64,000 nucleotides of DNA from Eledone cirrhosa (Eukaryota). The stretch lies in the NCBI GenBank assembly GCA_964016885.1, contig OZ024755.1, positions 5,146,001 to 5,210,000 of the forward strand. The letters run 5' to 3'. Under the pieces are notes generated by a model that was not told the DNA's origin, searched no databases, and saw only the letters and a list, made by a program, of their open reading frames with translations. The position numbers and the translations under genes were made by a program. Shown here piece by piece: positions 1,597 to 56,597 of this stretch; within the stretch, counting starts at the first letter, position 1, and each line of letters begins with the position of its first letter.

Positions 1597-2487
1597 TAGC
1601 GATATCTGCAAGATAACTACTTTTTCTGCACATGGCTTCTGCACAACATTATCAAAGTTTTTTCCAGATAACAGAAATTAAAATTAGCATTTGAATCATA
1701 TGTAATTCTTCTTCCACCACTACATGTTGCCGTTGTTGTTGTTGTACATTCCTTTTAGTAACATTTCCAGTTCCGGATATGACTTGCTCTATCATAATAT
1801 CTATGGAGCTGATATATTAAAGTAGGGGGGGGGGGTCTCGATGGTTGGGGTTTGTGTTGGGTTTCTCTGTTTTGGTTGCGGTTTGTGTTTTTGTCTGGTT
1901 TTGTTTGGTGTGTGTGTGTGTTTTAATGTCTGCTTGTGTATGAGTGTGTGTGTGTGTGTGTGTGTGTGTCTTTGTTTGGTTATATTTTGTTAGTGTGTTT
2001 GTCATTTATCAGTTGCAATCTCCAGGTATGTCTGACTTGTTTCAAATATTTCTCTCTGTTTTTCTTTTTTCAACCAAGAGACTAAGAGTGTTGTGATGTT
2101 CATGACTTTTTCAATCATATCTTAATGTCAAATTGCTTCTAGTAATGTTGCAACTGCATTCATTAAGCTAATTAAAAACAAACAAACAAACACCTAACAA
2201 TGCAAACAATTGTCTTCTACTACTCATGGCAATTCAATTTATTTGACATTCCACTAACACAATCTGATAGATTGTTGCCTTAACATTTAACCCTTTGCAT
2301 ACCAAACTGATAGATAGCATTAGCAATTGGAAAAGACCAATGGAAACATTATTTCCTTGGTCCGATTTTACGAGTTCCTCCCACTTGGTTTGTAAATGAT
2401 GTCTGGGATCTTGTTGATTGATTCGATCGATAAAAAGCCTAAACTATCTGAAACTGTTCATGGTTCTATGATACAAAACTATTTTAA

Positions 2488-2682
2488 TCCTTTAGCATTT
2501 AAACTGGCCATATCCAGCCAGAATTCTCTCACTTCTTTCTGTTCAAACTGGCCACTCATACTGACATTAAGGTATTGTTCTCAAAATAAATAATAATAAT
2601 ATCAAAATCTCACAGATTCCATATTATGTGAGAAAAAACCTTTACCATGAAAATATAATAGAGTAATGTAAATGCTAAAGGG
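2488..2682. mobile_element. piggyBac-type MITE family 1
   Basis: TTAA TSD and (T)CCTTTAGCATTT / AAATGCTAAAGGG TIRs. Confidence 0.8.
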
Positions 2683-3519
2683 TTAAAATATCTTCTATGT
2701 CCCCAAACTAAAACCTTAACAGAACTCCAAAGTTGAATCAGTGTGAGATAATATATGACAAGGCTAGACCATTGCACCACAGAGACAATCTGACGGTCTT
2801 CTACACAGTTACTGCCTACACAAGGTATCTACTCCATATACAAACACCACCACACCTCTTTTGTCAACTAGACACAAGAGAAACAGCCTTCTCTTCTCAC
2901 ACACTTCTATAGAAAAAAAAAAAAAACAGGTATGTGAGAAACTAAAACAAAAACCATGCCAAATTTCTATTGTAAACCAAACTCTAGATTCTACTCCACC
3001 TCCTCCAGGCAGCAGCACCAACAGCAACAATTCAGCAGGTAACAGTAATAGGGTAACATTATACATTCAAAGAAAAGTCTCCACAGATTTAGCACCATAC
3101 CAAAGCAAGCATTACACATATACACGCAATTTGTAAGATTACAGTGCCACTCAGTCTCCACCCCCACTACCCCAGTCTCCTCACCACTACCCCAGTCTTC
3201 ACCCCGCTAGCTTGCACAAATAGAACAAGCAGCCATATGTTGCAAAAGTTTCTGACTCATTCCACTGAATATTGCAGTTTTACCAAGATTGGCACAACAA
3301 GTGAGATATAGTGAAGAAAAAATCTCTAATTCTAAAATCTCTAATTTTATATATATATATAATCATCATTTTACGTAGGGTGGGACGGGATCTGATTCTG
3401 GTTTGATTTCTACAGCTGGATGCCCTTCCTAACACCAACCTCATTTACAGTGAGTGCTGGGTGCTTTTTTGCCGTGGCACCTCCACGACCACTTTGCAGT
3501 GGAATGATATGGACCTCAG

Positions 3520-17881: not shown

Positions 17882-18647
17882 CAACTGTCAATTTGTTGCC
17901 TGCAGCATACAATCACCATCATATAAAGCAGACGTTAGATGATGATGATGATGATGATGATGATAATGATGATGATAAGATGATGATGATGATAATTGTA
18001 TGCTTCAGGCAGTAAATTGACAGAGTTATTAAAGTGTCACATAAAATGCTTCTGTATATTTGTTCTGACTCTCTCCACAGTTCAAATCCTGCCATGTTTG
18101 ATTTTCCTTTTCATCTTTTTTGGCATCAACCAAAGTACCATCTCACAACTTTGCTGGATTAACCATTTTACCAAATTATATAACATTTCTCTAGAAACAT
18201 ATTACACAGTCAGAAAACACTCTCCCTACTATAATATCATGGCACAAGTGTTTAAAATTGTATTTAATGTCATGTGCTGTGAATTAGGTTATTATATGGC
18301 ATGTAGTGAGTCCCAGGGAATTCAAGTGTACATCTAGATATATCCAGATTAAAAAAGGGCTGGACCATCAGTTGCTGGAAAAGCTGTGCTCATACACACA
18401 TATATATGTACATATAAGAAAACTCAAGGAAAAATATGGAAGAACAATATACTACTAATGATATATATTAGTTTAATGCTTGATATATTAGGGAAAAAGA
18501 TTCTTAAAGTTTCAGACATTGGAAGAGAGAAGAAGAAATAAGATGAGATTAAGAAAACAAAAATGGTGAAAACATTTTTAGACTGAAAGAAAACATGTTA
18601 ACCCCCCACCACATATATATATAAACAGGGAGAATTTCAAAACTTAC

Positions 18648-18881
18648 CACATTTTTTACATATTTGAATAACAGCTCCAAAAACATTACAAGAAAAATCC
18701 ACAGAAAGCTCAATGATACTCAAGTTTGGCAACTGTATCTGAAGAGGTTTGTGCATCGGAGTAAACTCCAGTTTAGCATCAGCTTGCACTTCATACTGAT
18801 CCAACGTGGATCGAGTACGGTTAAGCCACTTGTTCCGGACTGGCCACCAAATTCCATGGTCAGACCAATCTAATGCAATGT
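18648..18881 (-). CDS. Kindlin/fermitin second coding exon (end of F0, start of F1)
   Basis: Encodes (D)IALDWSDHGIWWPVRNKWLNRTRSTLDQYEVQADAKLEFTPMHKPLQIQLPNLSIIELSVDFSCNVFGAVIQICKKC, with the kindlin DWSDH--WW and TLD-Y--QADA-L-FTP-HK motifs. Acceptor cttttcttttccAG, donor G|GTAAG. Length 234 nt, phase 1-1. The G from the previous exon plus AC gives GAC (Asp), keeping the frame. Confidence 0.96.
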
Positions 18882-19230
18882 CTGGAAAAGAAAAGAAAAG
18901 GAAGTTAGATTTTAACAATTCATCATCATCATTTCATTTTACGTCCGCTTTTTCCCTGCTTGCAAGGGTGGGACGAGAACTGGGTGCTTTTTTGCCGTGG
19001 TACCTCCACGACCACTTTGCAGTGGAATGATAGGGACCCCAGTACCTATCATCTCATTTCTACAGCTGAGTAAACTGGAGCAATGTGAAATAAAGTGTCT
19101 TGCTCAAGGAAACAACACATCACCCGGTCAATTACAGCCAATAATTCAGTTTTAAATAAATATATGGTCAACTGTCTTCATACCAACCCACATAAAACCC
19201 TGTGTTCTAAGATACAAAACTGCATTTTAA

Positions 19231-22806: not shown

Positions 22807-25800
22807 ATTGTCTAAAAGCATATACAAACACAAACAGGCAAATTAAAAGGAACAGATAAAATGACAAAAGACAAACAAGTTGGTGATAAAGATTGATGGT
22901 TCAAACTTAAGAGTGTTACTATAAAATCTTATTTATCTCTTAGTCTATTTACTATTTAGTCTGTTATATTTTGGCAGATGCACTTGTCTGGCAAGTGACT
23001 TGGGGGACCATGAGGTTGAGACTTAAGTAGAGATGACATTGTGGAAAACTTATTTTTGTCCATTAGAACACACAAAGAAACTTATTTATTTATTCAATTT
23101 AAACGTCTGTATAGAGCTAGTAAGCTATGGCAGACTAGGGGAAGTGTCGAGTACCCCTAATCAAAAAGAGCTAATGAGACAAGTAATAATAAAAAAAAAA
23201 AAATTAATTAATAGGGGGTCAAAAATAAAATAGACTGGTGGAAGAAAAGGGAAAGGGCTGAGCTTATGAGATCTTTTCAAGGGCTTCCAAGACTGGTGGA
23301 AGGAAGAGGAAGGTATTCTCAAACTGGCGACCTGGTCTGAATGCTTGCAACAGAGTGGAAATTGCTAAAGGCAGCCAAAAACCAGACACCATTTAATTCT
23401 TGGTGTCAACATTTTAGTTGCACTCTGTGACCTGCAGTGGAACTGTGTCAGTGACCAGCTGACAAACAGTAGGGAAAAAAATTTGAGACCAAGAAATATA
23501 TAAATAAATGTAAAGTGATTTTCTTTTTAATGGCTTAAGATGACTCTTTCAGACTGTTATAGTGTAGCTATAAGTTGACAAGGAATTAGTGAGATGCTGT
23601 TCTGAGAAGAACTTGTACAACCCATGCAAGTGTGGGATAATGGACTTATGATGATGATGATTATGGTGGACATACATTAACATATCACAGATGGTCAATT
23701 AAATCAGGTACTTAAAGAGCCAAGAGGTCAGCACTGCACTATCTGGTCAATACACTTAAGTCTGGATGGTCAAGATTATTAAAGTCCAAGTATGTACCAC
23801 AAGGCTGCAGTGGCAATGCTTCAAAATTGTAAAAGATGATTTAAAAAAGTATCTAACTATAAAACTTTGCCTTATAAAAGACCCCTTGACTATAAAGTCT
23901 ACCAAGAGACCCCACAAGTCTAACCCCTAATTTAGCAAGGGAAATGTCTTTAAGATACTATACAGACAGTACTGGGTGCATTTTATCATGGCACCAGCAC
24001 TACCACTTTACAGAGTATACCGAGAGCATTTCATCATGGCACCTGGAATAACACTTTACACACACACACACACAAACTGATTTCTACTAACGAAATAGGT
24101 CAGATTTTAAATTAAAAACCAAAACAGTCATACAATTAAATTAAAATATAAAGTTGTTTTCATCACAAAAAAAAATTTAAGATAAAAATTCAAACCAAAC
24201 ATCTAAACAAAGTGAAACGATAAAAGATAAAATATGCAATAGATTTAATACTATAATCGAATTCTTAAAGAATTTATTTTAACCTTCCCAAGAACAGTCG
24301 GATCAACTGATGACAACATTCGGTATTTGAACTGCATCGAAATAACAGGATAATAACTGGTTCTAATCTCTTTTTTATATTTTTTAAGCTTGCCCACTTC
24401 ACTCAATATCAAATAACGAACATTCAGATAATTTTACAGGTGAGGTCACTGTTGAACATTCTTTATAAAATTGCTTTCAGGAGTTCTTATGAATATTTTC
24501 CATTAACAAGAAAGCATTTTTTTTTGTGTTTGTTTTTATTTTATTTTTTAATGCATCTCATCATTTCAAACTTGCTTTTCAAGTTTGAAATGTCTTAGAA
24601 AATCATGGTGGAAAATATAAGCCAGTTAACACCCTTTATGCTGCATATAAAACAAATAGATGGTGGTAGGGGCTGTTTTATAATCTATTTTCTCTTTCTT
24701 TCTGAAATATTTTCCACATAACTGGAAACAGATAAAATGCATTTAAAAAAAAAAAATCAATTCTTTTGAACCCCTTTGTGACCTTATTTCTAATAAAATA
24801 GACTAGATTTCAATTAATTAATGAAGAATTTGGAAGGATTTACTAAAATTAATTATTTCATTATCAAGATCACATTTCAATTATAAAAGCTTTGTGGATA
24901 GAATTATTTTGGAAGTCTTTAATATAAGTAGGATCCGTTTAAAATGGATGGTTTTGTTTCACAGAGCCCGTTTTGGGCATGTTGGTATCAAAAGGGTTAA
25001 ATAGGAACCCTTTAAAATGATATGCTCTTCAGGAAGTTATCATATTAGAGAAAATAAAATAAAAATTCTTTTATATATATATATATAAAGTAACAGGAGA
25101 TGACGAAGGAACACAAGTAGAGAGATGATGTACTGAGAAGGATCTGTCCAACCCATACAAGCAGGGAAAAACAGACGTAATGATGATGGTGATATAGAGA
25201 ACATATTTCTCTGTTATCTGATTCAAACCTGTTATCATATTAGAGAAAATAAAATATAAATTCTTCAATATATAGAGAACATATTTCTATCAGTTAAGAG
25301 ACTTATTTGGAAAACTGGGCAGCTGACTCACCATCAAAGAGGAAATCCTGCTAAAACAGCTAGCAGCTGTTTCTTGTTTAGAAATTAAGTTTCATCATAT
25401 TCAGTACTTTCAGGATATATTTTGGGAAATGTTAGAATATATTCTAACATTATTCTTCTATATTTAAATATTACCTTACACATTCATAATATTAACTTAC
25501 AAAAATGAAATGAAATTTACAGCCCATGCTTATACAAGTTTAGTTGGTTTCCTTTGAAGAGGTTTCTTGGATGTTTTATTGATAGGGGCCTGAGTCCTTT
25601 AATGGAAAATACCATGAAATGAAGTATCTTGGTAAAAAACACAACATGCCACCTGGTCTGGGAATCAAATCCACAACTTTGTGAGTCCTGCATCGTAATT
25701 ACTAGATCATGTGCTTAACTTACATATATTAAATTTTTAGCTTCCATACAATAACTTCTTAGTATTGTATGGATGATGATGAATATATATATATATATGT

Positions 25801-25854: not shown

Positions 25855-27137
25855 CATCATCATCATCAACGTTTAACGTCCGTGTTCCACGCTTGCATGG
25901 GTTTGGACGGGGGGTTTTCTCACTTGAGGCAAGAGTGATTGTCTTGCTCGCATAGGACTGTCTGGCAGGTTTTCTACAGTTGGATGCCCTTCCTAACACC
26001 AACCACATTTACAGTGTGGGTCTGGGAGGTTTTTACCGTGTTGCCTACACGGCCACATTACAGCGTGGACTGTGTGTTTTTTTGTCGTGACACCTACACG
26101 ATCTCATTTGTTTCAGCCTGGATGGTGTGGCACCAACACAACTTTACATAGAAGGGGGCGGTGTGGATGGGGTGGGGGTGGTGGGACGGGGGTGTATTTT
26201 GTTAGAGATGCCTACTGACTGTAGTAGGTTTTACTATGTATTTAGGTAAGGCGGGTCTTCTCTATTACTGAGTACCGCCAAAGGACTCGGTCCAGTGACA
26301 TTGTCTTGGAGAGGTGTAAGTGTGTGAGGTCGGAGTTTATCAGCTCGTCCCAGGTTTTTCTAGGTCTGCCTATTCCGTGGCTACCGTCTATTTTTATCAC
26401 CCTGCACTTTGTTATACAGCTATCGGCTTTCATGCGCATCACGTGTCCATACCAACGTAGCCTTCTCTCGAGTAAACAACATCTGATCCCTCTTATTTCT
26501 AATTTTTTCCTTAGTTCGTTTATGCTTTGCCGTTCACGTATATTACTATTACACATCCAGCGGAGCATGCAAGCTTCGTTCCTCTCTAGTCTGCGTATAT
26601 CCTCTGCACACAATGCCCAGGTCTCACTGCCATGCAACATTGCTGTTCGTATGCAGGCATCATACAACCTGCCTTTCACTTTTAGGGAGAACCCTTTAGC
26701 GGCTAATAGTGGTATAAGCTCTCTGAACTTTTTCCATCCAGTTCTGACTCTAGCTACTGTACTTTCAGAGCACCCTCCCCCACTGCTGATTTTGTCACCC
26801 AGGTAACGGAAGCTGTCCACTATTTCTATAGAGCTCTCTGCGCAGTTGAAAGAGCTAGTATTTTGTGGGCACTTGCTGCTACTTATTGCACCAGAGCACC
26901 GGCCACATGTGAAATCTATGTTCTTAGTTAGCTTACCTGTGATCCCACTACATCTTTTATGCACCCATACTTTGCATTTCTGACACAAAATGGAGTTTCT
27001 ACCTACGCCTTTCCTACACACTGAGCATGGCCACTTCCCGGAAGGGACCGCCGCCTTATTTTCTTTCCTACAAACTAGAACTTTGGTCTTAGCCAGATTA
27101 ATTTCAAGGCCTTTTGATTCTAGGCCGTGCTTCCAAA
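25855..27137 (-). mobile_element. 5'-truncated RTE-clade LINE: RT C-terminal ORF (26242-27135), probable 3'UTR and (GAT)n tail
   Basis: Uninterrupted ORF with RTE-type motifs GLEINLAKTK, FRYLG, MLHGSETW, RRLRWYGHVMR and GRPRKTW. Downstream sequence ends GGACGTTAAACGTT(GAT)n, an end shared with shorter copies elsewhere in the window. Confidence 0.9.
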
Positions 27138-27157
27138 TATATATATATATCAATCTT

Positions 27158-27193
27158 TCTTCTGATGAAGGACTAGCGTCCGAAACGTTAAGA
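27158..27193 (+). ncRNA. Minimal Penelope-type hammerhead motif
   Basis: TCTT-CTGATGA-A-GGAC(TAGC)GTCC-GAAA-CGTT-AAGA; palindromic AACGTT in place of stem III. Confidence 0.55.
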
Positions 27194-27341
27194 CCCTCTT
27201 CCTGCTATATCAAGCGTTAACCTAATATATCCCTTCCATATACTGTGCCGATTGTGTTGTTATTTCTGTTTACCTTTTACATACATATACATATATATCC
27301 ATGCTAATGTGGAAAAATGGACGTAAAACGGTGATGATGAT

Positions 27342-34372: not shown

Positions 34373-34787
34373 TTAAGTGACTTAACTCTTAACATCCTGT
34401 ACCATATAAAACAGCATTAACAGTCTTCACATTAAAAAATGAAATCTTTAATACCATTTTTCACAACACTATCTCTAAGTAAAGATACTATAAACATTTG
34501 AATTAAATATTTTTAGATATTTTCTACTAAAAGATGTTTGCCTTTTATTCATACAAGGTTGATAAAAAAAGTACCAGTCTAATACTGGAGCCGATTCTTC
34601 CTCTATTCTCACTTTCTATCCTTCCCTGGAAGAAATGGGTGCCAGGCTTAGAAACGCTAATGTCAATATGCTGGCCCTACAACTCGGCCCTACAACTCCC
34701 TCGGGAGTTACGAGACGAAAAAATAAAAAAGAGTTAATACAGAAACTAATGAAACGTGCGCACACAGTAATCCCTCGTTACCTAATA

Positions 34788-34898
34788 TATATTTATAAAA
34801 CTGATCTATATTATATTTTATCTGATGAAAGCACACCATAATTTAACTTGGGGTCCTTGAAATATGTATAATGAAATAAATATGGTTTTATAAATATA
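34788..34898 (+). ncRNA. Type I hammerhead ribozyme in a dispersed short repeat (copy 2)
   Basis: TATTTTAT-CTGATGA-stem II (AAGcACaCCA..TGGgGTcCTT)-GAAA-TATGTA-TA-ATGAAATA, with outer stem TATATTTATAAAAC/GTTTTATAAATATA. Confidence 0.7.
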
Positions 34899-35352
34899 GT
34901 TTCCATTTGTTAATATCGTATATATATATATATATATATATATTATACTAACAAAGAACATTCGTCAATTGTATATGCATCACTAACTTCCATGAAAAAA
35001 ATAAAAATGCATGGAACCCGAGACAACAGGTTCACTTTAAAAGACATCAACTCTGATATAGAGGAAACACAGGAGACGTGGGAATGTACTAGAAATGTAC
35101 AACACCTGCTGGGTGTGAATATGGTCAGCTCCTGTGTTGTTGATATTACAAGTTATACACTACATGTGAAAGAAGGAAAACATGAACAACAATAATATCA
35201 TATTTCAGGGATATTTGTTTACTGTGACAAGGTGACACAGCTATGACAGAGTGTTACTGCATTGTACTGTACTGTTTTGTAGATCCAGCTGTTTATTGTA
35301 AAGTATGAGAAAATATTAAAATGATGATAATGGCAATGATAAACTAAAAAAT

Positions 35353-36533: not shown

Positions 36534-36956
36534 AAGTTGGAGTTTGGAACATAACGGTTCTTAGATAAAATTATGATGAAAGATGTATAGATAAATATAA
36601 ATACTTTAAAAGAAACAGTTTTGTATCAGATTCAAGGGCAGTCGTAGCTGGTTTAGTTTCAAAAGTGTTGAGTCAGCAAATAAATTTCTCCACTGTTCTT
36701 TAGAATAACTTATCTTGGCACATGTGGAATATTACGGAGAAGTCTCCTTTGATATTCAGCAGCTAGCAGCTCTGTGGAATGTCACTTCTTCCATCACTTA
36801 TAAAATAAAATGCTGAGGAACATTACTGTCTAAACCAAGTTAAACAATAATTCTTCAGACACTTCAGGTTCTTTTTTCTTTTATTTTACTTTCTAATTCA
36901 GTCAGGAGTTAATACAGAATTCAGAGGAGGAATGTAGAACCCTGGAGTTGAATCAC

Positions 36957-39062
36957 TGGGTGGTGGGGGCACCATATACATAGCCAATGGTGGGGGGCAC
37001 CATATACATAGCCAATGGTGGGGGCACCATATACATAGCAAATGGTGGGGGCACCATATACATAGTCAATGGTGGGGGGCACCATATACATAGCCAATGG
37101 TGGGGGCACCATATACATAGCCAATGGTGGGGGCACCTTATACATAGTCAATGGTGGGGGCACCATATACATAGCCAATGGTGGGGGCACCATATACATA
37201 GCCAATGGTGGGGGGCACCATATACATAGCCAATGGTGGGGGCACCATATACATAGCCAATGGTGGGGGGCACCATATACATAGCCAATGGTGGGGGCAC
37301 CTTATACATAGTCAATGGTGGGGGCACCATATACATAGCCAATGGTGGGGGCACCATATACATAGCCAATGGTGGGGGGCACCATATACATAGCCAATGG
37401 TGGGGGGCACCTTATACATAGCCAATGGTGGGGGCACCTTATACATAGCCAATGGTGGGGGCACCATATACATAGCCAATGGTGGGGGCACCATATACAT
37501 AGCCAATGGTGGGGGCACCATATACATAGCCAATGGTGGGGGGCACCTTATACATAGCCAATGGTGGGGGCACCATATACATAGCCAATGGTGGGGGGCA
37601 CCATATACATAGCCAATGGTGGGGGCACCTTATACATAGCCAATGGTGGGGGCACCATATACATAGCCAATGGTGGGGGCACCATATACATAGCCAATGG
37701 TGGGGGGCACCATATACATAGCCAATGGTGGGGGCACCTTATACATAGCCAATGGTGGGGGCACCATATACATAGCCAATGGTGGGGGCACCATATACAT
37801 AGCCAATGGTGGGGGCACCATATACATAGCCAATGGTGGGGGGCACCATATACATAGCCAATGGTGGGGGCACCATATACATAGCCAATGGTGGGGGCAC
37901 CTTATACATAGCCAATGGTGGGGGCACCATATACATAGCCAATGGTGGGGGCACCATATACATAGCCAATGGTGGGGGGCACCATATACATAGCCAATGG
38001 TGGGGGCACCTTATACATAGTCAATGGTGGGGGCACCATATACATAGCCAATGGTGGGGGCACCATATACATAGCCAATGGTGGGGGGCACCATATACAT
38101 AGCCAATGGTGGGGGGCACCTTATACATAGCCAATGGTGGGGGCACCTTATACATAGCCAATGGTGGGGGCACCATATACATAGCCAATGGTGGGGGGCA
38201 CCTTATACATAGCCAATGGTGGGGGCACCTTATACATAGCCAATGGTGGGGGCACCATATACATAGCCAATGGTGGGGGCACCATATACATAGCCAATGG
38301 TGGGGGCACCATATACATAGCCAATGGTGGAGGGCACCTTATACATAGCCAATGGTGGGGGGCACCATATACATAGCCAATGGTGGGGGCACCTTATACA
38401 TAGCCAATGGTGGGGGCACCATATACATAGCCAATGGTGGGGGCACCATATACATAGCCAATGGTGGGGGGCACCATATACATAGTCAATGGTGGGGGCA
38501 CCATATACATAGCCAATGGTGGGGGCACCTTATACATAGCCAATGGTGGGGGCACCATATACATAGCCAATGGTGGGGGCACCATATACATAGCCAATGG
38601 TGGGGGCACCATATACATAGCCAATGGTGGGGGCACCATATACATAGCCAATGGTGGGGGCACCATATACATAGCCAATGGTGGGGGCACCATATACATA
38701 GCCAATGGTGGGGGCACCTTATACATAGCCAATGGTGGGGGCACCATATACATAGCCAATGGTGGGGGCACCATATACATAGCCAATGGTGGGGGGCACC
38801 ATATACATAGCCAATGGTGGGGGCACCTTATACATAGTCAATGGTGGGGGCACCATATACATAGCCAATGGTGGGGGCACCATATACATAGCCAATGGTG
38901 GGGGGCACCATATACATAGCCAATGGTGGGGGCACCTTATACATAGCCAATGGTGGGGGGCACCATATTCATAGCCAATGGTGGGGGGCACCATATACAT
39001 AGCCAATGGTGGGGGGCACCATATACATAGTCAATGGTGGGGGGCACCATATACATAGCCAA
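36957..39062. repeat. 27/28-bp minisatellite, roughly 75 copies
   Basis: Unit GGTGGGGG(G)CACC(A/T)TATACATAG(C/T)CAAT; source of all ORFs in 36.9-39.0 kb. Confidence 0.98.
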
Positions 39063-39096
39063 AAGCTAAAACTATATAAATATCTGCAAAATAATA

Positions 39097-39151
<55 letters not shown>

Positions 39152-52202: not shown

Positions 52203-52328
52203 AATGAAACCAGAGCTGAAATCGAAGTCCATTTAAATGATAACCTACAGATAATTATACAATACAATAAACCATTGGAGAGAAAACAGACATCGATTGA
52301 AATGTAATATAGGGTGTTTTGTGCTTAC

Positions 52329-52467
52329 CGAGGGCTTCGACCAGTTGTAACATAACCCCGCCGATATGCAGGTCACCTTTCACTCGGAGACTTTTATCAA
52401 CGTTTAAATCGGTCACATTAATATTTAGCTGCCAAGAGCCATCGATATATCCATTATCAGACATCAT
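52329..52467 (-). CDS. Kindlin/fermitin family (unc-112/FERMT-like) first coding exon, F0 subdomain
   Basis: Encodes [46 protein letters not shown], matching the kindlin N-terminus (DG-W-L---VTDL----LRV-G--HIGGVML-LVE). Polypyrimidine tract and AG acceptor at 52513-52512, so the exon starts at 52511 with a short 5'UTR. Donor G|GTAAG after 52329 (phase 1). Confidence 0.95.
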
Positions 52468-52786
52468 CTTGGACACTTTTAAGGGGGGAACTTGTTAGAT
52501 CCACGCAAGTTCTACAATGACAATGAAATAAAAGAAGAAAAAAATGTTATTTTAAACAAAATTCAAATTTTGTGAAATTTAATTATGAAATAAATATCAA
52601 GTACTACAGATTTCGTTCATAATCAACTAACTATACAGGACGGGGTGGCATTTCGGGAAGTTTGGCCACCTTTAAATATTTACAAATTTAATTAAAGTTA
52701 AGGGAATTTAATGTCCCGGCAGAAACTGATTCACCTTTATCAGGGTGTGCACACACACACATTATATATATATACATACACACACA

Positions 52787-54810: not shown

Positions 54811-54875
54811 TAAGTGCGCTGTCCTATGACGTAGTGTGTTGAGGAGGAAAAACACGCACGCTGATTGGCTCACTC
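54800..54875 (-). promoter_or_regulatory. Putative core promoter: NF-Y CCAAT box and CRE-like site
   Basis: Minus strand reads AGCCAATCAG at 54870-54861 (full NF-Y consensus); TGACGT at 54827-54832; Inr-like GCAGT near 54810-54806. Confidence 0.5.
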
Positions 54876-55716: not shown

Positions 55717-55754
<38 letters not shown>

Positions 55755-55815
55755 ATATATAGTACAATCAAGAAAAACTTGAACCGTTAAGGTATCTTTT
55801 CTTGGTTATGTCAAA

Positions 55816-55912
55816 ATTTATAAAACAAACTTTGTATTTTATCTGATGAAAGCGTACCAAAGTTTTGGTACCCTTGAAATATATATAATAGAATAAATAT
55901 GGTTTTATAAAT
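55816..55912 (+). ncRNA. Type I hammerhead ribozyme in a dispersed short repeat (copy 1)
   Basis: TATTTTAT-CTGATGA-stem II (AAGcGTACCAA..TTGGTACcCTT)-GAAA-TATATA-TA-ATAGAATA, with outer stem ATTTATAAAAC/GTTTTATAAAT. Confidence 0.75.
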
Positions 55913-56597
55913 ATAGTTTCTATTCATTTAATATCATTGAATATTATACTCTAGAAAACTTGTCGAGTGCTCTGAATCAGTTATAAATATTTATATTTGT
56001 TGAATTACCAACAAATTGAATATCCCTTTTGCTATATATATATATATATATATAGTACAATATATGTATATAGTATAATAAAAAAATAAAAAAATTTGAA
56101 TATATTTAGATATTTCTATCCATTTTCTAAGTGCGTATACATATGTATATATACATGCGTGTATACATATATATGTACCTTTCATTTATATATATATGTA
56201 CATATATATTTATATACATATACACACACACAATGGATTACTAGCAAAACTAGAAGATTCTAAGAAAAAGTTAACTTAGATATCAAATGATTCATATTGG
56301 AAGAGGCGAAGCGAAAGAGGTAAGGCGTTAAAATGGTGGAGCAGGTGTGTCTCTCTAAGGTGCGGGGGTGGGGAACCAGGATTTGGAAGAAAGAATGTAT
56401 TGAAACAGGATGTTGGCTGCATATTCATATTGACAGAAGACGTTGAAGAGTAGTGTGGCGTGTGGGGGTTATACGAGGTAATAATACAATAAAATAGAAT
56501 AGAATAAGATAAAAACGAGAGCGAAAGAAATATTACTGTTTTATCCTCATCTCGAGCCAACGGGGCTTGACCAAGGGGACCACAAAATGCCAGACGA

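Follow-up and report, generated by a model that had tools for sequence, protein, structure and literature searches.

A hammerhead motif upstream of a kindlin exon in Eledone cirrhosa is very probably the pseudo-LTR ribozyme of an abundant Hydra-clade Penelope-like element

A stretch of 64,000 nucleotides of the Eledone cirrhosa genome (contig OZ024755.1, positions 5,146,001 to 5,210,000; hereafter the window) contains a dispersed repeat in which a preliminary description recognised a complete type I hammerhead ribozyme, close to a putative kindlin promoter. The question raised by this locus is whether the motif belongs to a small non-coding mobile RNA, as that description proposed, to a larger mobile element, or to the regulation of the neighbouring gene. 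The ribozyme is located as follows.

55816–55912, forward strand: hammerhead with its outer stem, whose arms are 55816–55826 and 55902–55912 (sequence and predicted fold)
55835–55895, forward strand: type I hammerhead with stems, core and a predicted cleavage after 55887

Direct reading of this copy, referred to as copy A, gives a complete type I core with stems I to III at 55835–55895 of the forward strand. Stem I pairs TATTTTAT (55835–55842) with ATAGAATA (55888–55895) and includes one U.G; the core CTGATGA occupies 55843–55849; stem II (55850–55875) consists of 3 bp, a C.C mismatch and 7 bp; and GAAA at 55876–55879 (GAA at 55876–55878) leads into the stem III palindrome ATATATAT (55879–55886). 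H17 is A55887, with the predicted cut directly after it, and the pair 10.1-11.1 is A-U, not G-C. The CUGANGA and GAAA core, the UH cleavage site, the three helices and the open helix I of type I hammerheads are all present, and every coordinate previously given for this copy (stems, core, GAAA, palindrome, H17 and outer stem) proved correct.

The 97-nt region is more stable than any of 200 shuffles (z −3.1), and the 11-bp outer stem is present in the predicted fold. For stem I, folding predicts the hammerhead register with a low probability (0.00–0.24), and an alternative hairpin that the 3′ arm can form, and that tolerates the same wobble shifts as stem I, competes with this register. Rfam hammerhead models, proposed earlier as a check, gave no match in the whole window (E ≤ 5) or in a 151-nt stretch (E ≤ 10). 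The bare pattern CTGANGA-N4-34-GAAA occurs nine times in the window against 4.2 expected, a number reached by 4 of 100 shuffles; being near chance, it leaves the case to rest on full pairing and family evidence. Core-pattern matches at 24307, 52935, 3979, 40054 and 50348 were rejected on inspection, having no convincing hammerhead pairing.

The window also contains a second copy of the motif.

About 34784–34918, forward strand: copy B, of sister subfamily B, with a tail-less end, lying antisense in a kindlin intron (sequence and genome copies)

Its hammerhead spans 34814–34878, stem I starting at 34814, and, just as the preliminary description had it, the entire core is kept, two stem II pairs covary (G-C/T-A in copy A, A-T/C-G in copy B) and the stem I wobble sits at a shifted position. 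Stem II of copy B carries an A.G mismatch, stem III is ATATGTAT, an imperfect palindrome, and the copy folds no better than shuffles (z −1.0 and +0.8).

Both copies belong to large families. Searching the 3.0-Gb host genome with a 171-nt query of subfamily A, to which copy A belongs, returned 1,177 candidates; of the 40 that were scored, the 39 non-self best matches were 96–98% identical. Subfamily B gave 105 candidates, 40 of which were scored and were 92–99% identical. When the genome was searched for 33 nt taken from the 3′ half of the motif, 40,736 exact matches were obtained, compared with none for the reversed control. At this density (one per 74 kb, or 0.87 per 64-kb window), chance would account for the two copies in the window and for the one near kindlin. 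Comparison with 29 other loci set the boundaries of the window copy, that is, copy A, and placed the following features around it.

55769–56033, forward strand: probable 5′-truncated 3′ end (pseudo-LTR and tail) of a Hydra-clade Penelope-like element (PLE), subfamily A, 265 nt
55752–55768, forward strand: target-site duplication, left copy, 17 bp, TATATATATAGTACAAT (sequence)
56045–56061, forward strand: target-site duplication, right copy, preceded by extra TA units (sequence)
55769–55804, forward strand: predicted hairpin whose base, 114–125 nt upstream of the cleavage site, coincides with a cluster of many 5′ ends
55939–55944, forward strand: short (tail-less) end position of the family, 52–57 nt past the cleavage site
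55945–56033, forward strand: tail of ~90 nt, corresponding to the 5′ UTR that leads to the ATG in ORF-joined copies

The copy is inserted in a (TA)n tract between the two duplicates, and is recognised as 5′-truncated because many other copies extend further upstream. It differs from most of 28 relatives at four private positions, all outside the ribozyme, lies only about 1.5% from its family, and is likely a young insertion. No inverted partner or ORF remnant of copy A or copy B was found within the window. Copy A is without the Inr-like TCACT that longer copies carry just upstream of the 55769–55804 hairpin. Further downstream, about 17 nt short of the long end, a predicted TTGTTG/CAACAA hairpin (55996–56015) recurs in 11 of 12 aligned copies, and past the short end there is another conserved hairpin (ACTC/GAGT); the two show little covariation and are candidate positioning signals for the reverse transcriptase (RT).

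The proximity to kindlin was considered in the light of these numbers. Two kindlin exons lie on the opposite strand.

52258–52494, reverse strand: reading frame with a kindlin N-terminal coding exon (PF18124, E 6.5e-13)
18640–18933, reverse strand: kindlin N-terminal exon, confirmed as coding

The intron between them is about 33 kb long and contains copy B in antisense orientation. Relative to the kindlin coding exon, copy A is upstream and on the opposite strand, where a divergent transcript from the promoter would carry the ribozyme in sense, and it might have been co-opted to cut such transcripts. That its four private changes all fall outside the ribozyme is in keeping with this idea, but with four changes in 265 nt, the sparing of a 97-nt part says little. 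Moreover, the genomic density gives a 2.7% chance of a copy in any given 2 kb, so many genes would have one as close as kindlin has; the copy is young, only about 1.5% from its family; it is solo, having no partner in cis, and closing stem III in the monomer would cost about 2.9 kcal/mol; and the position of the kindlin promoter is itself putative. We regard co-option as extremely improbable, and the copy is likely inert, a passive passenger where it has been inserted. CCAAT-like and CRE-like motifs were seen by eye near 54830–54870.

Penelope RT and GIY-YIG sequences, which the preliminary description had suggested looking for in the neighbourhood of the motif, were found joined to it elsewhere in the genome, upstream at locus L031 and downstream at locus L025. 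The 3′ end of L031 is 97.0% identical to the window copy over 265 nt; an RT (GLYRDD) and a GIY-YIG-type nuclease are encoded by broken frames 1.1–3.2 kb upstream of this end, before a 3′ UTR of ~1.2 kb, and the far end of the locus carries an inverted tail-less copy. At L025, which is 96.5% identical to the window copy over 257 nt, the tail continues into a 5′ UTR, as it does at seven other listed loci, most of which reach an ATG (L055 and L096 in the list of ORF-joined loci are one place). The ATG stands about 200 nt past the cut site. The order of the unit is hammerhead, 5′ UTR, an ORF of ~740 aa encoding a telomerase-like RT followed by a C-terminal GIY-YIG endonuclease, ~1.2-kb 3′ UTR, hammerhead and tail.

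The long natural frames recovered measure 743, 699, 689 and 637 aa, and no fully intact ORF was found among the copies read (protein searches, best 150 of 9,698 or 93,973 candidates). In the longest, at L091 (743 aa), the aspartates of motif A and motif C are both replaced; the two pseudo-LTRs of this locus are about 3.9 kb apart owing to the long 3′ UTR. Pfam recognised neither RT nor GIY-YIG in the element ORFs, and a sequence search of the PDB did not recognise the ORF. When Pfam was run on 60 aligned proteins (57 of 150 listed relatives and three local frames), it found RT in 4 and GIY-YIG in 1. The model predicted from this alignment (pLDDT 89) had telomerase as its top PDB match in a fold search (E 1.1e-8), and its Atlas neighbours include clusters with GIY-YIG (26–50% of members) and RVT_1. 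A stretch rich in asparagine separates the RT thumb from the CxCX5C linker in the ORF of L031 and in L091–L098 and resembles the N-rich inserts described for rotifer Penelope elements.

As in other endonuclease-bearing (EN+) PLEs, one ORF combines a telomerase-related RT with a GIY-YIG endonuclease, pseudo-LTRs stem from partial tandems, an inverted 5′-truncated copy is adjacent, a tail at one end is optional, and the hammerhead lies inside the pseudo-LTR. We consider it very probable that the motif represents the hammerhead in the pseudo-LTR of a Hydra-clade PLE with a high copy number and that the window copy is a young, 5′-truncated and likely inert stub of it. A type I hammerhead that is Penelope-associated, dispersed and covarying, as initially described, is supported by the pairing and by the family data; the separate small non-coding mobile RNA family is not, since the same sequence serves as pseudo-LTR and 3′ end of a protein-coding element.

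A non-LTR retrozyme, in which tandem hammerhead monomers give rise to small circular RNAs independently of any ORF-bearing unit, would share with the family its type I hammerhead, palindromic stem III, AT-rich composition and short unit, which at near 265 nt falls within the 150–450 nt given for retrozyme monomers in the relevant passages of Cervera and de la Peña (2020; PMC7229834), and a preprint links retrozymes to PLE pseudo-LTRs (bioRxiv 10.64898/2026.07.22.740005). However, tandem arrangement, which the preliminary description had also raised, did not appear among the first 100 of the 40,736 matches: neighbours within 5 kb comprise 15 head-to-head, 3 tail-to-tail and 3 same-strand cases, the last being 285, 2936 and 4965 bp apart, with no array. 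Furthermore, the ends of the copies lie away from the cleavage site, the copies do not represent circular permutations of a single monomer, and on both sides the sequence runs without a break into the ORF. In lacking arrays in the sample examined, in its contiguity with a coding element and in the offset of its ends from the cut, the family differs from non-LTR retrozymes as these are characterised in PMC7229834, and we hold such an origin to be very improbable.

Within PLEs, the closest agreement is with the Hydra clade (Craig et al. 2021, PMC8557442; Hydra-1_Obim, Penelope-n_HM, Penelope-1_NV). According to the sections of that article that treat the clade, its members have a C-terminal endonuclease without CCHH, a CxCX5C linker, DKT, RWK, and CxxC and CxH, they target (TA)n and they carry canonical hammerheads; its table lists 6 newly curated and 21 Repbase families. 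The family studied here shares the single ORF in which RT is followed by GIY-YIG, the change from DKG to DKT (SDKT in L091, L092, L093, L094 and L033), a CxCX5C linker (CNCRIKSNC), a C-terminal endonuclease that lacks CCHH and has one Cys located between the half motifs, CxxC before the catalytic E (CSLCVEE, CxLC) and CxH after the N (CKH or CRH), and insertion into (TA)n. It also shares the sense type I hammerhead near the 3′ end with a short palindromic stem III, and the lack of a G10.1-C11.1 pair that is frequent among the hammerheads in File S2 of that article. At the RWK position, RWR (RRLRWRAF in L091 and L095) or RWC (L093 and L096) is found instead, and relatives have R in 16 and K in 13 of 37 ungapped rows at that column. 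The assignment was made by these motifs, the published Hydra sequences being compared by eye.

In contrast to the clade as described there, the hammerhead sequence matches none in File S2, including that of Hydra-1_Obim; stem I is longer and has an outer stem, stem II contains a C.C mismatch and stem III is all A/U; and the unit of about 3.9 kb, with its ~1.2-kb 3′ UTR, exceeds the length general for Hydra elements (under 3 kb), while the motif copies number at least 40,736. A search of titles and abstracts, with subscription papers and Repbase/Dfam outside its reach, found no paper describing this family. On sequence grounds, it appears to be a new, very abundant family of the Hydra clade, set apart from the named ones by the File S2 hammerheads. 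Naiad/Chlamys elements were also considered and rejected by the criteria given in the corresponding part of PMC8557442, since the endonuclease here is C-terminal rather than an N-terminal GIY-YIG and a canonical hammerhead is present. A more distant Hydra-like family at L096 (1–807, reverse strand), L083 and L086 shares the CNC...C linker and the C-terminal nuclease at 35% (L083) and 33% (L086) amino-acid identity, indicating several Hydra lineages in this genome.

The anatomy of the copies bears on how they are inserted. Copies end at either of two sites past the cut, at about +52–57 or +137–146, and are followed by (TA)n. Among 49 head-to-head pairs, 47 join one long and one short end, the exceptions being L023, whose tail has an insertion, and L064, an ORF-joined copy. 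Both junctions carry TA-like template bases. The two arms of a pair belong to the same subfamily, but in just 5 of 48 pairs is each arm strictly the closest copy to the other. Tails confined to one end have already been described (PMC8557442, legend of Fig. 2; PMC3846280), and PMC11167929 ties tail ends to two internal RT starts; relative to these tails, the length of ~90 nt, the strict pairing and the TA-like template bases at both junctions are new.

The insertion of the window copy was likely made by the element's own endonuclease and RT. In the simplest scenario, the endonuclease would nick both strands of a (TA)n tract in a staggered manner, the RT would start internally on the RNA at +52–57 and +137–146, sites beyond which a few TA-like bases follow in the template, and both cDNAs would grow inward and join head to head; if one end alone were copied, a solo stub like the window copy would result. 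As both start sites lie downstream of the cut, we infer that the template either has escaped cleavage at that hammerhead or has been re-ligated into a circle after being cut. In vitro, another PLE was found to start RT internally, to have both strands cleaved and extended, and to use uncleaved RNA, as reported in PMC11167929. The ribozyme itself would cut slowly as a dimer via its palindromic stem III and process read-through or tandem element transcripts.

That PLE, Poseidon PAc of Anolis carolinensis (Frangieh et al. 2024, PMC11167929), is likewise delimited, in the account given there, by two discrete ends past the hammerhead, inserts into AT-rich targets and has an A/C-rich hairpin near the long end. 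It belongs to another clade, however, with a tail of 30–40 nt compared with about 90 nt here, and its ATG lies inside the ribozyme instead of about 200 nt past the cut. Its starts are described as non-homologous to the target, whereas here the template runs on with TA-like bases at both ends, and the near-strict pairing of one long with one short end is particular to the present family, as far as that description goes.

Head-to-head pairs could instead arise by self-priming on the antisense template or by endonuclease resolution, as proposed in the pertinent parts of PMC3846280 and PMC8557442, rather than by two primings, the tail then being a resolution product. Short palindromes or templated extra bases at several junctions would fit this origin. 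Against it, the long ORF-bearing arm may be tailed (L031) or tail-less (L120/L121), and tail ends map onto RT starts in the experiments of PMC11167929. We find this route doubtful. A more speculative version of two primings is a complex of two RNAs and two proteins, which would make each inverted insertion, always priming one target strand at +146 and the other at +52–57; the palindromic stem III would act mainly in pairing the RNAs rather than in cutting them, and an RNA of ~270 nt beginning at an initiator at −125 would be a self-contained template; we consider this arrangement unlikely. If it were true, PLE hammerheads, whose function is called unclear in the portion of PMC8557442 concerned, would gain a structural role and the tail would become a fixed insertion rule, testable on tens of thousands of genomic copies.

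The 5′ ends suggest an additional source for part of the copies. Mapping of 5′ ends in subfamily A against 3′ UTR references placed 21 of 67 within a 12-nt window at −114 to −125, and only five others in the next 75 nt. Judged by its duplication, the window copy begins at −119, CT repeats causing the alignment to over-extend it to −171. Several inverted pairs have both arms ending at the same hot spot, which sits at the base of a hairpin beside TCACT; this motif, at about −129 to −125, has been called Inr-like in a PLE pseudo-LTR (PMC3846280), and the ORF-joined pseudo-LTR of L098 begins at −129 directly after (TA)n. Short copies might then be a SINE-like non-autonomous derivative, an RNA of ~270 nt started by a pseudo-LTR initiator ~125 nt upstream of the cut and copied in trans by Hydra proteins, and internal RT starts would leave flanking read-through uncopied. 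But the remaining 46 of 67 copies have other ends, spread between −57 and beyond −700; the starts of ORF-joined pseudo-LTRs range from −37 to −293; and the sample consists mostly of top BLAST matches to a query starting at −98, so shorter ends are under-sampled. Since a hairpin base and a short palindrome coincide with the hot spot, RT stops or microhomology joining explain it equally well. We think a SINE-like derivative possible rather than probable. It can coexist with insertion by two primings as the account of part of the copies, possibly including the one in the window, and, given the shared hot spot, some short copies may stem from a discrete ~270-nt RNA, a weaker form of the mobile RNA first proposed.

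Comparison of genomic copies indicates what has been maintained. The structure set comprised 26 distinct variants: the two window copies and 24 cluster representatives out of 26, the other two being left out on account of a deletion in one case and of identity to copy A in the other. Pairing is kept in 90.5% of cells. Double changes occur in 26 cells, a number reached in none of 500 shuffles, and four pairs of stem II are compensated; the variants are related, however, and the covariation events are not independent. The number of pairs with a double change was not above control (4 against 2.9, reached in 153 of 500 shuffles). In 105 distinct variants, filtered at ≤2 mismatches, which favours intact cores, N7 is the most variable core position (T 92, C 8, A 4, G 1), while the other positions of the 5′ core are conserved in at least 101. 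These counts bear out conserved pairing across copies and a free N7, within the limits just stated.

In 12 copies drawn from several subfamilies, there is hardly any change in the core and stem I, whereas the flanks and loop 2 diverge. Among 28 copies of subfamily A, mismatches amount to 0.8% in the ribozyme, compared with 2.1% and 2.9% in the flanks within the query, 16 of 97 sites being variable in the former and 22 of 71 in the latter (p 0.039). Stem II covariation across subfamilies, together with N7 being the most variable core position, points to selection on the fold in the replicating element lineage, not on the window copy, as judged from these alignments.

With respect to activity, folding energies favour a dimer. 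Closing stem III in the monomer costs about 2.9 kcal/mol at 37 °C, and a duplex of two 8-nt palindromes is predicted at −3.2 (37 °C) to −6.5 kcal/mol (15 °C). An A-to-G change at the palindrome centre in 11 of 26 variants leaves tandem wobbles that still pair in the dimer, which is suggestive support for dimer action, although it may be one event. Cleavage is predicted to be weak as a monomer and dimer- or protein-assisted, on account of the stem III cost, the low stem I probability, the alternative hairpin and the A-U pair at 10.1-11.1. Weak, dimer- or protein-assisted cleavage has been reported for other PLE hammerheads in the relevant parts of PMC4209133 and PMC11167929. Of the earlier suggestion that the ribozyme can act as a dimer, what the modelled energies make likely is that it is of the dimer-dependent Penelope kind.

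As Cervera and de la Peña (2014, PMC4209133) describe them, the minimal hammerheads with palindromic helix III in metazoan PLE pseudo-LTRs are similar: type I with a long helix II, mostly solo or in opposite-strand pairs 100–700 bp apart, with many covarying families per genome and predicted dimer action. The present motif differs from them in its A10.1-U11.1 pair without a clear bulge after A9, its 8-nt helix III palindrome and its 8-bp helix I with an 11-bp outer stem.

The single locus is ordinary, being a stub of a known class of retrotransposon, and the family is the more useful object. At least 40,736 motif copies in several young subfamilies offer natural covariation, two sharp ends, a longer tail, near-strict pairing and a 5′ hot spot, which make a linear versus a circular template, and a cutting versus a pairing role of the hammerhead, testable by genome counts and in vitro.

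Other hammerhead-like sequences were encountered along the way. Cores with a long stem II in flanking DNA at L098 (123, forward strand), L097 (2315, reverse strand) and L091 (6893, reverse strand) are possibly more diverged relatives. An additional family in the window was missed in the preliminary description.

27158–27193 within 27150–27285, forward strand: unrelated minimal type I hammerhead (sequence and genome copies)
26245–27204, reverse strand: open frame of 320 aa with a PHD finger (E 2.6e-7)

This hammerhead has stem I TCTT/AAGA, core CTGATGA, an extra A, stem II GGAC/GTCC and a palindromic ACGT, with a predicted cut after 27189; no Rfam match was obtained for it (at 27162). The copy has (TA)n flanks and lies antisense within the kindlin intron. 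Its family yielded 552 candidates, 40 of which were scored and were 92–97% identical, and the Hydra-family ORF studied here was absent at the 8 of 8 loci checked. The insertion sits at the upstream end of the 26245–27204 frame, which we take to resemble the end of a LINE-type ORF. At L037, an intronless rhodopsin-family GPCR frame of 347 aa (2353–3393, reverse strand; 7tm_1, E 3e-39) lies about 1.1 kb from an element copy. Finally, a long tandem repeat, seen as repetitive reading frames, occupies about 36900–39100 of the window.
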